Shown: positions 15,297-64,000 of the stretch, piece after piece | How the letters are laid out: each line of letters starts with the position of its first letter | Position numbering within the stretch: the first letter of the stretch is position 1 | Sequence record: PV245934.1 | Direction: 5' to 3' (one strand) | DNA from: Escherichia phage sutha | DNA: 64,000 nucleotides | Made by a program: the position numbers and the translations under genes | Notes under the pieces: generated by a model | Told to the model about the DNA's origin: nothing | Database searches by the model: none | Seen by the model: the letters and a program-made list of their open reading frames with translations, nothing else

Positions 15297-15899
15297 TTAT
15301 AGATTAAATCCTTCAAAATCAAGAGTATAGATAGTGTATGTTGAATACTTTTTATACTCATATCTATCCGCAATTCTAAATACACTTCCAGCTGGTATCA
15401 TTACTTCTTGTTCATCTGAAACTAATTCCATATTACGATAACGATGGCTATCCGGAAATTTAAAACTCGGACTATATTCTTTACAACGTAGAGCTTTTAT
15501 AGCATACTCCTGAAAATTAAATACCATAGGAGCTTTGAATTCAAAAATAACTTGCGTGTTGTATTCTAATCCAGAAGCAAAATGCAGAGCTATATTTTTA
15601 TCATATGAAGCTGATACTACTTTATCAAATGTAATAATATCAATTCCTTGATTTAACACCTGCTTAGTCTCAACTGGAACACCTCTCCAAAGAGGTTTAT
15701 CGTTTGGAACCAAACGAGATTTGATTATTTCATTTAACCAAGAATGATCGTCTGGCTTATTAGTAATACAATGAATTAAAAGTTCAATTTCGGATAAATT
15801 AAATCCTTCAGAAAGTAATTCTTCACGAATAGAAGCACGCACCGATGCATCCATTGATTTGATTTTAAAATCTTTTAATTGCATTGCTGAATATTTCAT
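15297..15899 (-). CDS. modA: ADP-ribosyltransferase ModA
   Basis: 200-aa ORF, same size and position as T4 ModA; paralogous to next ORF. Confidence 0.7.
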   Translation of the reverse strand: MKYSAMQLKDFKIKSMDASVRASIREELLSEGFNLSEIELLIHCITNKPDDHSWLNEIIKSRLVPNDKPLWRGVPVETKQVLNQGIDIITFDKVVSASYDKNIALHFASGLEYNTQVIFEFKAPMVFNFQEYAIKALRCKEYSPSFKFPDSHRYRNMELVSDEQEVMIPAGSVFRIADRYEYKKYSTYTIYTLDFEGFNL

Positions 15900-16519
15900 T
15901 CAACTACCTCAATATCATACACTTTAAATGTTCCAAATGAATCGTGTAATTTTTCTTTTGAAATAGAAGTTATTTTATACTTTCCAATTGGAATCATCCA
16001 TTCTTGTTCACGCACAATCATCATTAAGTTATCAGTACGTTCTGAATCTAATCCATCAGTATCTTCATATGTATACTTAAATTCAGTATTAGGAGAAGAA
16101 AGTATAATATCGCTGATATGGTCAGAGTAATTAAAAGCTTTATCAGTTTTTAAGCGAAGTACTATTTCAGTGGAATATTCAACATAAGAAAAACCGCATG
16201 CTGTGTGCAAACTAGTAGTAAATGAATCTACTCTATTCGTTGAAAACACTTCTCCAACTTGTAAATCTTTAATGAGCTCTTTTGTCGATTTTGATATACC
16301 ACGATATAACTGATGAGGTGATTCAGTTAAATGCTTTTTAATGATTTTATTCAACTGCCGATGAAGAGCTTCATTCTTTTTGGCTTCCATACATTGCCAA
16401 AGAACTGACTGTTCAAAGTCAGTAAATTTTTCACAGACCTTTTTATACATATCATATTGAAAATCAACGCTTTCAGCTTTTATAGATAACTGTTCAACAT
16501 CTGCAAGATTAATAATCAT
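15896..16519 (-). CDS. modB: ADP-ribosyltransferase ModB
   Basis: ORF 15896..16531 trimmed to ATG 16517-16519 (SD GGAGG), 207 aa as T4 ModB. Confidence 0.7.
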   Translation of the reverse strand: MIINLADVEQLSIKAESVDFQYDMYKKVCEKFTDFEQSVLWQCMEAKKNEALHRQLNKIIKKHLTESPHQLYRGISKSTKELIKDLQVGEVFSTNRVDSFTTSLHTACGFSYVEYSTEIVLRLKTDKAFNYSDHISDIILSSPNTEFKYTYEDTDGLDSERTDNLMMIVREQEWMIPIGKYKITSISKEKLHDSFGTFKVYDIEVVE

Positions 16520-21363: not shown

Positions 21364-21990
21364 TTAACCTCTATTCATAAAAGCATTAAAAATTTGATCG
21401 TCAATAGAAACTTTTACTTTAGACTGTTTTTCTGATGGCAATTCATATCCGCATATTACAATTTTGTGATCAATATCAAAATACACAGAAGCAATATGAT
21501 TAATGATGTTTTCAGTAAAGTCTAAATCAACATCAATATCTTTTTGACCACAACCTAAAGGATAAATAATGCGAGTAATTCGATTATCTTTAACAAAGAT
21601 TCCACCGACATACTCTGTGCTGCGTTTAAAGTCTACACGCCGACGAAATGAAAAATATTCAGGCTCTTTATGAGCTCTGCTCATAGGACATAACGAGTAA
21701 CTAGAATAAGAGATGTCAAATCCTACGCCTTCAATATGAGCCAAATTATCATGATTAAACCAATTATAATCGTACGCCAAGTCCATTAGATTATAATATG
21801 TAAAAGGCACCGGATTAACGTCATTAGTCACAAGCATGTAATTAGCAACTGCTATAATTTCATTGTTTTTAACGAATACAAACCGTGATTGATGCGAATG
21901 ACCTGGACCCGCGTTTTCACGATTAATGATATAACACTGGGCACCTTTATATTTGTATGTATCTTTGCACTTGTGCATTTGATAGAGCAT
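21364..21990 (-). CDS. 61.2-position protein (T4-family 61.2 is the anti-DarT factor AdfA; assignment here positional)
   Basis: 208-aa ORF between 61.1 and sp. Confidence 0.45.
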   Translation of the reverse strand: MLYQMHKCKDTYKYKGAQCYIINRENAGPGHSHQSRFVFVKNNEIIAVANYMLVTNDVNPVPFTYYNLMDLAYDYNWFNHDNLAHIEGVGFDISYSSYSLCPMSRAHKEPEYFSFRRRVDFKRSTEYVGGIFVKDNRITRIIYPLGCGQKDIDVDLDFTENIINHIASVYFDIDHKIVICGYELPSEKQSKVKVSIDDQIFNAFMNRG

Positions 21991-61656: not shown

Positions 61657-61869
61657 TCATTTTTGTCCTGTATTTACTTTGTGCCGGTGCACGGCCTTAA
61701 CTTTATCAAGGTATTTTTCAAAATTTCGCAATCTAGTATAGTCTGCCGGAGATTGGTTGAGTGATACTTCTCGACGCAAAGCTGAAATGATATTTCCAAC
61801 TTCCCTACGAATTTCATCTAATTGAAGAACAGTAAGATTGCGAAGTTGCTTTTCAGTTAATTGTAGCAT
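61657..61869 (-). CDS. hypothetical protein rI.1
   Basis: 70-aa ORF between tk and rI. Confidence 0.45.
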
Positions 61870-61892
61870 ATATACCCCTTTAGTTAGATAAA

Positions 61893-61904
61893 CCTATTTA
61901 TAAC
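61893..61904 (-). promoter_or_regulatory. possible late promoter TATAAATA between tk and rI.1
   Basis: + strand tatttata at about 61895-61902. Confidence 0.35.
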
Positions 61905-61911
61905 TTTTGCA

Positions 61912-62493
61912 TTAACCGAGCTTTTTAGTTAATTCATTCCAATGTTTTCTACACAAAGAAACATAAATTTCATCACCAATACAGATTTGATCACCTTCTT
62001 TAACTGGTGTTCCATCTTCCATTAATCGAGCCGTCATAATCGTTTTTTTACCGCAATGACAAACTGCCTTTAGTTCAATAAGTTTATCTGCAATCGCCAA
62101 AAGTTCTTTAGAACCTTCAAATAATTTTCCGGCGAAATCAGTCCTTAGACCATAAGCCATAACAGGAACATTATATGTATCAACAATTCGACTTAATTGA
62201 TGCACCTGTTCAGTTTTTAAAAACTGGGCTTCATCTACAAATACACAATGAATATCTTTTTGTGCTTCAGCCCATTTATAGAACTCAAAAATATCCATAT
62301 CATCCGTAATAATATTCGCTTCCTGCTTAATTCCAATGCGAGAAACGACTTCACAGACAGAATCGCGAGTATCAATAGCAGGTTTAAGAACTAATACACC
62401 CATTCCGCGTTCTTTATAATTATGCGCAGCAGTCAAAAGAGAAGCAGATTTTCCAGCATTCATTGCTGCATAAGTAAAAATTAAACTCGCCAT
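61912..62493 (-). CDS. tk: thymidine kinase
   Basis: 193-aa ORF, P-loop YAAMNAGKS, C-terminal zinc ribbon; size equals T4 Tk. Confidence 0.85.
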   Translation of the reverse strand: MASLIFTYAAMNAGKSASLLTAAHNYKERGMGVLVLKPAIDTRDSVCEVVSRIGIKQEANIITDDMDIFEFYKWAEAQKDIHCVFVDEAQFLKTEQVHQLSRIVDTYNVPVMAYGLRTDFAGKLFEGSKELLAIADKLIELKAVCHCGKKTIMTARLMEDGTPVKEGDQICIGDEIYVSLCRKHWNELTKKLG

Positions 62494-62502
62494 ATCACCT
62501 TC

Positions 62503-62709
62503 TTAAAGCGTATTCACATAAGCTATTAATTCGTTTTCTTTCTTATCAAACCGGTCAGCAAATTCTTCTTGCTGTTCGGGAGATAGCGGGCCGTATTCAT
62601 CATAAAAGGTGTTTGCTTCTGTATGCTCATCTAGAAGTTCATGGATAAGCTCAAACAATTTATCTTTTTGTTCTTTACTCAGACTCATAACCATGTAACC
62701 TTTAAGCAA
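62503..62709 (-). CDS. hypothetical protein (tk.1 position)
   Basis: 68-aa ORF. Confidence 0.4.
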   Translation of the reverse strand: MLKGYMVMSLSKEQKDKLFELIHELLDEHTEANTFYDEYGPLSPEQQEEFADRFDKKENELIAYVNTL

Positions 62710-62897
62710 TATTCTTCTACATGTTGTTTACGACCTTTCCTATCAATAAAGGTATATTCAACGAATGTTCCAATATAGTCTTTATCTACATCATGAGGAC
62801 TATTAATTGGGCATTTAGTACGGCAAATGCGTTCCCATTGACGAATAATTTCTGCTTTGTTTTTAGGATCAAACGGATGCGGGTAATGTGCTTTCAT
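62685..62897 (-). CDS. hypothetical protein (tk.2 position)
   Basis: 70-aa ORF. Confidence 0.4.
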   Translation of the reverse strand: MKAHYPHPFDPKNKAEIIRQWERICRTKCPINSPHDVDKDYIGTFVEYTFIDRKGRKQHVEEYCLKVTWL

Positions 62898-63348
62898 AAT
62901 CCACCACTATTAAATCAATATCAGGAGTAAACATGTCGATTAATTTAGAAACCTTATCCCAATCACCGCCAGCAATACCGCAACCTATGCGTGGAATGTA
63001 AATTACTGGTTTAAACAAAAGGGTCTCTGCCTGTAGATTTAATTCTATCATGCAGTTTACTAAAGCACCATAATCAAGATTAGGACCCGGTTCGTATTGC
63101 GTATACAGGTTATAGCATATACCAAATCCCGTAGGACTATGTTTAAAAACAATAGACATATCGCCTAATTTATCGCGAGAACCGTACTCGGTAGTAGTTT
63201 TATCTATTTCTAAAATTTTAGGATAGGCCCTCGCTAATTGACCCGCTACACCTGAACCCATAGTATGAAAGCAGTTGCACCCGTGCGCAATAATATTACC
63301 TTGAAGAAATAGGGCGACAATATCGCCCTTGATATATTTTACAATCAT
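62869..63348 (-). CDS. macro-domain-like protein (predicted ADP-ribose binding/processing)
   Basis: 159-aa ORF; GNIIAHGCNCFHTMGSGVAGQL resembles macro-domain N-terminal motif (VVNAAN..L.GGGV.GAI), IPRIGCGIAGGDW resembles the distal P.IstG.yG motif. Confidence 0.45.
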   Translation of the reverse strand: MIVKYIKGDIVALFLQGNIIAHGCNCFHTMGSGVAGQLARAYPKILEIDKTTTEYGSRDKLGDMSIVFKHSPTGFGICYNLYTQYEPGPNLDYGALVNCMIELNLQAETLLFKPVIYIPRIGCGIAGGDWDKVSKLIDMFTPDIDLIVVDYESTLPASV

Positions 63349-63686
63349 CTAGTACTCAATCCTCGATTATAAGAATCTACCAAACGGTCAACCATTGAAT
63401 GACAAGCGGCTTTATCTTTCTCCTCCGCAACTGAACATTCTAAGGTATTCCACTTTTTAGCATATCGTTTTAATAAAGTATCGTTCTTGTATCTGCTTGA
63501 TTTATCTCTTTCTCCGTCTTTATATGCATATATTAATTTCTGCGCAAATTCAGCTTGGCATGCTTTATTTTTCCCACAATAATCCGCGGCAGTACGGTTT
63601 ACATACTCTCTAATTTCAGTATATGATGTATTTGCTAACGCAGAAAATGAAATTAATCCTATACATAAAACCAAAATTTTAGTCAT
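63345..63686 (-). CDS. hypothetical secreted protein
   Basis: 113-aa ORF with signal peptide MTKILVLCIGLISFSALA. Confidence 0.4.
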   Translation of the reverse strand: MTKILVLCIGLISFSALANTSYTEIREYVNRTAADYCGKNKACQAEFAQKLIYAYKDGERDKSSRYKNDTLLKRYAKKWNTLECSVAEEKDKAACHSMVDRLVDSYNRGLSTR

Positions 63687-64000
63687 TTACTATTTCCAAA
63701 AGTTTATTATTTTTAAGGTAGTTAGCCTTTTCTAGGACTTCAGAAGCATATTTAGAACCTGCTTTAACATTCCATCCCGAATTATAAGAGGATATCGCCT
63801 TTCTTATATCGCCCTTATGTATATTTAACCAATAAGAAAGTTCAATGTACGCCCAGGAAGCTGAATTGGACCGTTTATTCAACATTCTTTTTATTTCGGC
63901 ATCGGTCATATTATAACCAAGTTCCTTAACTCTTGCTCGCATAGTTGGCAAATAATTTTGGAACATTCCATAGGCATGATGTTTTGGTTTAGATTTTAAA
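63679..64000 (-). CDS. lytic transglycosylase (GH23/SLT)-like protein, 5'-truncated by window edge
   Basis: Frame is open from 64000; SLT-like motifs AYGMFQ and SSYNSGWN; ORF-track ATG at 63966 probably internal. Confidence 0.45.
   Translation of the reverse strand, partial: LKSKPKHHAYGMFQNYLPTMRARVKELGYNMTDAEIKRMLNKRSNSASWAYIELSYWLNIHKGDIRKAISSYNSGWNVKAGSKYASEVLEKANYLKNNKLLEIVND

Follow-up and report, generated by a model that had tools for sequence, protein, structure and literature searches.

The window analyzed here, a stretch of 64,000 nucleotides from Escherichia phage sutha (PV245934.1), encodes at 62869..63348 on the minus strand a macrodomain protein of 159 aa with a single domain, which belongs to the TARG1/ALC1-like class and is the ortholog of T4 Tk.4 (AdfM); its fold, class, orthology and active-site residue conservation are shown here. 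Judging by this orthology and by the conserved residues of its active site, this tk.4 gene probably (at roughly 65%) encodes an early counter-defense enzyme that removes DarT2-added ADP-ribose from single-stranded phage DNA. The original prediction of a macro-domain protein with a counter-defense or regulatory role was essentially right in observation and interpretation, yet the finding is already known, the domain having been described in 2006 and the function in 2025.

Genomic context of tk.4

The reading frame is real (ATG start, minus strand, 159 aa in the ORF listing), and both motifs first quoted as macro-domain-like are present in its translation, GNIIAHGCNCFHTMGSGVAGQL as residues 17-38 and IPRIGCGIAGGDW as residues 118-130. 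Two synteny anchors flank the gene on the same minus strand. Upstream lies vs, the valyl-tRNA synthetase modifier (63345..63686; PHROG 1256 at 6.5e-40; 96.5% identical to T4 Vs), and downstream lies tk.3 (62685..62897; Pfam DUF7202 at 8e-38; 92.9% identical to T4 Tk.3). Farther out are a tk.2-like ORF of 68 aa carrying DUF7438 (62503..62709, between tk and tk.3), tk itself (61912..62493; Pfam TK at 2.5e-59) and vs.1, annotated in T4 as SLT-transglycosylase-like, which occupies 63679-64000 and runs past the window end. The C-terminal 95 codons of vs.1 that lie inside the window are 100% identical to T4. The gene order in ime09 and T4 is tk, (tk.1), tk.2, tk.3, tk.4, vs, vs.1, regB, and the neighbors of the 159-aa ORF, identified through Pfam and PHROG, fit this order; placed between tk.3 and vs, the ORF is therefore tk.4. 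It had been described as lying next to tk, which holds for the neighborhood but not as direct adjacency, since two small ORFs, the tk.2-like ORF and tk.3, separate the two genes. A megablast search with 61800-64000 matched 833 phage records, headed by T4-like Tequatroviruses at 98-98.6% identity (Shigella phage SH-1, Escherichia phages HY01 and ime09), and the source of the window is a T4-like Tequatrovirus.

The stop codon of vs and the start codon of tk.4 overlap in the sequence ATGA (63345..63348, minus strand), an arrangement also annotated in T4 and ime09, which suggests translational coupling of the two genes within one transcription unit. At its other end, tk.4 overlaps the start of tk.3 by 29 nt according to the ORF coordinates (62869..62897, minus strand), and this packing with both neighbors is typical of a tight T4 prereplicative transcription unit. 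Consensus scans of 61800-64000 revealed no excess of promoter-like sites (7 against a shuffled expectation of 10.0) or terminator-like sites (2 against 1.4). A G+C-rich hairpin of 19 nt, AGGGCGATATTGTCGCCCT, is found at 63311-63329, within tk.4 near the 5' end of its coding sequence, and was flagged as terminator-like on both strands.

Other genes for ADP-ribosylation conflict are present in the same genome. ModA and ModB, whose presence had been part of the original argument, are both encoded on the minus strand; ModA (15300..15899) is 97.5% and ModB (15899..16519) 95% identical to its T4 counterpart. At 21367-21990 lies gp61.2 (95-97.5% identical to the T4 protein), which we take to be the T4 counterpart of RB69 AdfA. 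With ModA/ModB and gp61.2, the window therefore has at least two ADP-ribosylation-conflict loci besides tk.4. As to the upstream neighbor of tk.4, the HIDEN-SEQ study reports vs as the T4 gene most strongly depleted in minimal versus rich medium.

Macro fold and structural class

The macro-domain resemblance is not due to chance. The profile search proposed with the original prediction gave a Pfam Macro match (PF01661) of 32 bits, above the gathering threshold of 22, with E=1.3e-7 and coverage of profile positions 2-117 of 118. Additionally, phmmer against PDB sequences matched solved macrodomains, namely BT1257 (3.7e-10), Poa1p (1.6e-9), SCO6735 (8.5e-8), Mycobacterium tuberculosis DarG (4.9e-5) and human TARG1 (0.01), and with a profile of 66 homologs the PDB macrodomain matches improved to between 6e-19 and 5e-12.

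The AlphaFold2 model built on the 66-homolog alignment (mean pLDDT 93.7, pTM 0.89) displays the three-layer alpha/beta/alpha macro fold, with a C-terminal tail, PASV (residues 156-159), that is absent from T4 and modeled at pLDDT <50. The top Foldseek match is human TARG1/OARD1 (4J5R/4J5S), with TM values of 0.72-0.75, and the structure is nearer to TARG1, DarG, SCO6735 and Poa1p than to MacroD-type, PARG-like or viral macrodomains. The protein is a TARG1/ALC1-like macrodomain and therefore does not belong to the YmdB/MacroD class, from which YmdB had been suggested as the comparator. Binding of ADP-ribose is predicted through the conserved loop 1, which carries N25, and the Gly-rich phosphate loop.

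Active-site residues

Three elements contribute to the predicted active site, all on the minus strand. Loop 1, HGCNCFHTMGSG (residues 22-33; 63250..63285), contains the invariant H22 and N25, which align with His24 and Asn27 of SCO6735, and G23, which stands where SCO6735 has Val25. The NLYTQ motif (residues 80-84; 63097..63111) contributes the invariant Gln84 at the catalytic-Lys position. The phosphate-binding loop, PRIGCGIAGGDW (residues 119-130; 62959..62994), aligns to LPRIGCGLAGGTW of SCO6735 and contains G124, the counterpart of SCO6735 Gly128. Within this loop GCGIAGGDW of the window protein and GCGLAGGTW of SCO6735 are nearly identical, whereas GAGIGKGNW of T4 Tk.4 deviates more, leaving the window loop as the more canonical one. 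Across the alignment of 66 homologs (A1; 38-97% identity), H22, G23, N25, C26, N80, Y82, Q84, P119, G122 and G124 are invariant.

Gln84 aligns with the catalytic Lys of TARG1 (K84), DarG (K80) and PhiKZ gp104, and with Gln85 of SCO6735; its placement comes from an HMM alignment to TARG1 and two MAFFT alignments (A2, A3). The SCO6735 sequence (chain residues 23-176) was obtained from a PDB alignment with BT1257 as the query, and its numbering was confirmed. The TARG1 sequence used in the alignments agrees with the PDB alignment. A Gln at the catalytic-Lys position is common to the window protein and T4 Tk.4. Human TARG1/OARD1 shares the loop lengths of the window protein but differs in its catalytic dyad, Lys84/Asp125, which is replaced by Gln84/Ala126, with A126 occupying the Asp125 position. 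The HSCNCNGSWG motif of Poa1p aligns its His23 with His22 and its Ser30 with Thr29, in an alignment that is confident over the N-terminal half only.

A Gln-centered site of this kind has been described for SCO6735. Although it has no Lys/Asp residues, SCO6735 is efficient at cleaving the thymidine-ADP-ribose that DarT makes, and it shields cells from DarT (PMC9411070). In the same study Q85A is dead, N27S nearly dead and G128E strongly impaired, and H24Y is inactive via misfolding (PMC9411070). All four positions are kept in the phage protein, with Q84, N25, H22 and G124 corresponding to Q85, N27, H24 and G128. Two further features of SCO6735 are not shared: the mobile loop of the window protein and of T4 Tk.4 has the TARG1/DarG length and is free of lysine (YEPGPNLDY), and Val/Ile25 is replaced by a Gly23 that is invariant in the phage family. 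Val25 is considered mechanistically important in SCO6735, and Lys89 and Lys94 of its longer mobile loop are implicated in DNA binding (PMC9411070). The comparison thus predicts lysine-free chemistry of the SCO6735 type in the phage enzymes rather than use of the DarG/TARG1 lysine, and it singles out Q84, N25 and G124 as residues for experimenters to mutate.

Relation to DarG and to cellular macrodomains

The only PADLOC match of the window protein and its best NCBIfam match are both DarG, restricted to the macrodomain part. PADLOC aligned model positions 3-144 of 329, and NCBIfam NF048014 aligned positions 2-142 of 338 with a score of 27.7 bits, where the equivalog cut-off is 250. DarG (PDB 5M31, 5M3I, 7OMU; NF048014) uses a catalytic Lys80 (T. 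aquaticus numbering) where the window protein has Gln84, and its model spans about 340 positions, compared with the 159 aa of the window protein, which is a macrodomain only. Identity as DarG was rejected on the score, the missing C-terminal domain, the missing catalytic Lys and the lack of an adjacent darT; a partial, low-scoring match without the DarT-binding domain makes the protein DarG-like, not DarG.

A scan of 185,579 species genomes returned at least 566 cellular relatives, the best 80 of which reach at most 44% identity, span many phyla and are mostly stand-alone ORFs of 140-180 aa. Within 4 kb of these 80 best loci, tblastn at E up to 10 detected no DarT2-like sequence (0/80), the query having been a single P. 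aeruginosa DarT2 that divergent DarTs could escape. The genes sampled next to the cellular relatives have no relation to it and are mostly of the housekeeping kind, ileS and rpoC among them. Capture of a DarTG antitoxin as the origin is accordingly unsupported, and with relatives that mostly stand alone and no sequence like the queried DarT2 detected within 4 kb of the best 80, the phage family looks akin to free-standing hydrolases like SCO6735 and BT1257 rather than to an antitoxin captured of late. In 7 of the 80 best loci (L007, L013, L035, L041, L048, L056 and L062; five Hyphomicrobiaceae, one Jannaschia and one unclassified Pseudomonadota) the macrodomain gene stands directly downstream of an isoleucyl-tRNA synthetase gene on the same strand. 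Considered as an echo of the phage vs neighbor, this class-I tRNA synthetase, seen in some Alphaproteobacteria, was set aside as coincidence, because it is IleRS rather than ValRS and just 7 of 80 loci have it.

SCO6735 (PDB 5E3B) and BT1257 (2FG1/2AFC) are 25-27% identical to the window protein and are cellular, whereas the latter is viral. Both have a mobile loop five residues longer, with lysines implicated in DNA binding, and Val/Ile25, where the phage family lacks the extension and has Gly23. Their pI values of 9.5 (SCO6735) and 8.4 (BT1257) contrast with 5.0 for the window protein. Net acidity as an argument against DNA binding was nevertheless rejected; it is not disqualifying because PhiKZ gp104 (pI 5.05) removes DarT2-added ADP-ribose from DNA in vitro (Cell Rep 2026, PMC13309987). 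Also named AdfM, PhiKZ gp104 resembles the window protein as an acidic single macrodomain of a phage that counters DarTG2, but it is only about 21% identical, is DarG-type with a PTK lysine and is imported into the phage nucleus (PMC13309987). Despite their shared name, PhiKZ gp104 and Tk.4 appear to be independent lineages. The name AdfM is thus carried by two macrodomains, PhiKZ gp104 (Lys-type, known from biochemistry) and T4 Tk.4 (Gln-type, known from genetics).

A second anti-DarT route is encoded by T4 itself. AdfN (gene 30.3, NADAR; PMC11825919), a functional analogue of Tk.4, is an orphan hydrolase of antitoxin type that undoes the ADP-ribosylation of DNA by DarT, but its NADAR fold is unrelated and it acts on the guanosine adducts of DarT1, not the thymidine adducts of DarT2. 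TARG1 is reported to remove thymidine-linked ADP-ribose (PMC9411070).

A divergent allele of tk.4

BLASTP of the 159-aa window Tk.4 against the 155-aa T4 protein aligned 155 aa without a gap at 58% identity (E=1e-70). Full-length homology together with the position between tk.3 and vs establishes orthology to T4 Tk.4/AdfM. The two proteins share the tk.3-tk.4-vs locus, the length class, the fold and H22/N25/Q84; they differ at 42% of residues, in the phosphate loop compared above and in the four additional C-terminal residues of the window protein, which overlap tk.3. This divergence is local. The proteins of rI.-1, rI, rI.1, tk, tk.3, vs and vs.1 are 93-100% identical to T4, and sliding-window nucleotide identity to T4 delimits an island of allelic divergence at 62854..63333, with 49-72% identity over 62854-63213 and 80-85% over 63214-63333 (the first ~130 nt of the gene). 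The flanks show 90-100% nucleotide identity, and the edge is sharp at the vs junction. A second, smaller island at 62494-62709 holds the tk.2-like ORF, 54% identical to T4 Tk.2, and lacks tk.1; tk.3, between the two islands, is 93% identical to T4.

Among 50,697 phage records, the window-type allele is represented by 312 at ≥90%, including Dhakavirus JS98 at 93%, and the T4-type allele by 224 at ≥90% plus 159 at 80-90%. Because both allele classes are common and sharply divergent, tk.4 behaves as an exchangeable or fast-evolving cassette. The ligand-contacting motifs are kept in both alleles. Both active and inactive alleles are known for AdfA and AdfB, so allele identity can matter for anti-DarT factors. 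The Tk.4 family could even form a distinct phage-adapted catalytic subtype, marked by the Gln site, the short mobile loop, Gly23 and an acidic surface, with the dimorphism as the trace of an ongoing arms race, an idea that we regard as doubtful; were it true, the alleles could differ in the toxins or substrates (DNA thymidine, RNA bases) they neutralize.

Proposed function and alternative explanations

That tk.4 orthologs carry an A1pp/macro domain has been in the literature since 2006 (PMC1524935). When a T4 transposon library was grown on a DarTG2-expressing host, tk.4 was the single significant hit, and a clean T4 tk.4 knockout becomes DarTG2-sensitive; the gene was named adfM, anti-DarT factor Macrodomain (preprint, November 2025, 10.1101/2025.11.20.689424). 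The same authors describe T4 Tk.4 as structurally similar to the M. tuberculosis DarG macrodomain and consider that enzymatic ADP-ribose removal "seems likely," their support being genetic (10.1101/2025.11.20.689424). This genetic protection against DarTG2 lends support to the counter-defense role first proposed for the window protein. In cells infected with T2, the Tk.4 protein has been detected, and tk.4 mRNA occurs in RIL-seq chimeras with host ArcZ. Relatives of tk.4 are found in 2,789 of 50,697 phage records (~5%), many of them labeled "phosphatase" or "hypothetical"; "macro domain protein," "Poa1p-like" and "RNase III inhibitor" are further GenBank/RefSeq labels.

In the mechanism proposed here, Tk.4 would be made early from the prereplicative vs-tk.4-tk.3 transcription unit. 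Infection would free DarT2 from the host DarTG2, whereupon thymidines of single-stranded phage DNA would become ADP-ribosylated and replication blocked. With loop 1 and the Gly-rich phosphate loop as its contacts, Tk.4 would bind the ADP-ribose and hydrolyze the N-glycosidic (base-ribose) bond in the SCO6735 manner, in a water-mediated reaction in which Gln84, held by Asn25, would act with His22. Stripped of ADP-ribose, the phage DNA could be replicated again. From the T4 and SCO6735 precedents we infer that the 58%-identical window allele is active, that dT-ADP-ribose is its substrate and that protection is catalytic. Several observations weigh against this reading: the 42% of positions at which the window allele departs from T4 include the phosphate loop, there is no counterpart of the catalytic Lys found in DarG and TARG1, and the analogy to SCO6735 is partial, the Lys-bearing loop longer by five residues being missing and Gly23 standing for Val25.

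Tk.4 might also counter other or broader ADP-ribose defenses, instead of or besides DarTG2, and the window and T4 alleles could then differ in spectrum; we consider this unlikely. T4 tk.4 scored solely under DarTG2 among the defenses screened, and the retention of ligand-contacting motifs in both alleles argues for the same chemistry. Candidate targets of such activity include CmdTAC-type RNA ADP-ribosylation, RNA ADP-ribosylation at uracil or thymine bases and ADP-ribose-derived immune signals, and one study on reversible uracil-base RNA ADP-ribosylation (PMC13036486) reportedly discusses TARG1 and DarG. CmdTAC targets T-even phages through mRNA ADP-ribosylation (PMC11618068). An island of 58% identity inside flanks of 93-100%, with both alleles common, fits conflict-driven diversification.

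The database label "phosphatase" reflects another reading, in which the protein clears ADP-ribose metabolites as an ADP-ribose-1''-phosphate phosphatase or an O-acetyl-ADP-ribose deacetylase like Poa1p and the DarTG2 effect is secondary, but the label is inherited from the domain name. ADP-ribose-1''-phosphate (Appr-1''-p) is a product of Tpt1-type tRNA splicing, and to our knowledge T4 RNA repair (Pnk/Rnl) yields none. The one reported phenotype of the T4 gene is specific to DarTG2, and SCO6735, whose active site has the same residues, uses DNA and proteins as substrates, leaving a metabolite-clearing role decidedly improbable.

It is also very improbable that, as in the regulatory variant of the original prediction, Tk.4 erases or regulates the marks that the phage's own Alt, ModA and ModB place on host RNA polymerase, on translation factors or on RNAylated proteins. 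In favor of this idea, the window also encodes ModA and ModB (15300..16519), and SCO6735 and TARG1 also de-modify proteins. The residue modified by Alt, ModA and ModB, however, is arginine, and enzymes of the ARH1/DraG type take off Arg-ADP-ribose, whereas the bonds cleaved by macrodomains of the TARG1 class are Glu/Asp esters and thymidine adducts; those specific for arginine, MavL for instance, are an exception and differ in structure. Moreover, tk.4 is unlinked to modA/modB, at a distance of ~47 kb, which speaks against such a role, as may the presence of the family in many phage groups (FelixO1-like, Pseudomonas, Acinetobacter and Vibrio phages).

A mainly non-catalytic function, by which Tk.4 would bind and block DarT2 or would shield or sequester ADP-ribosylated sites, could draw on the missing canonical catalytic Lys, on SCO6735 Q85A, which still inhibits DarT in vitro (PMC9411070), on the reported inhibition of DarT through interaction by catalytically dead SCO6735, DarG and TARG1, and on ICP1 AdfB, a 77-aa DarT binder with no macrodomain that neutralizes DarT by binding alone, but it is highly unlikely given that the C-terminal DarT-binding domain of DarG is absent and that strict invariance of H22/N25/Q84/G124, across distant homologs and also in free-living bacteria where no DarT2-like gene was detected within 4 kb, suits a conserved enzyme better than a toxin-specific binder.

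Significance

With tk.4 read as an early enzyme that probably reverses DarT2 modification of phage DNA, its value as a discovery is low, the domain having been on record since 2006 and the T4 role against DarTG2 since 2025. The additions of the present analysis are modest: Gln rather than Lys at the catalytic position together with the short loop, and the two-allele island. The occurrence of two common, divergent alleles in near-identical T4-like genomes offers a ready-made test of specificity tuning in an anti-DarT macrodomain, a question that bears on host-range prediction for therapeutic T4-like phages.
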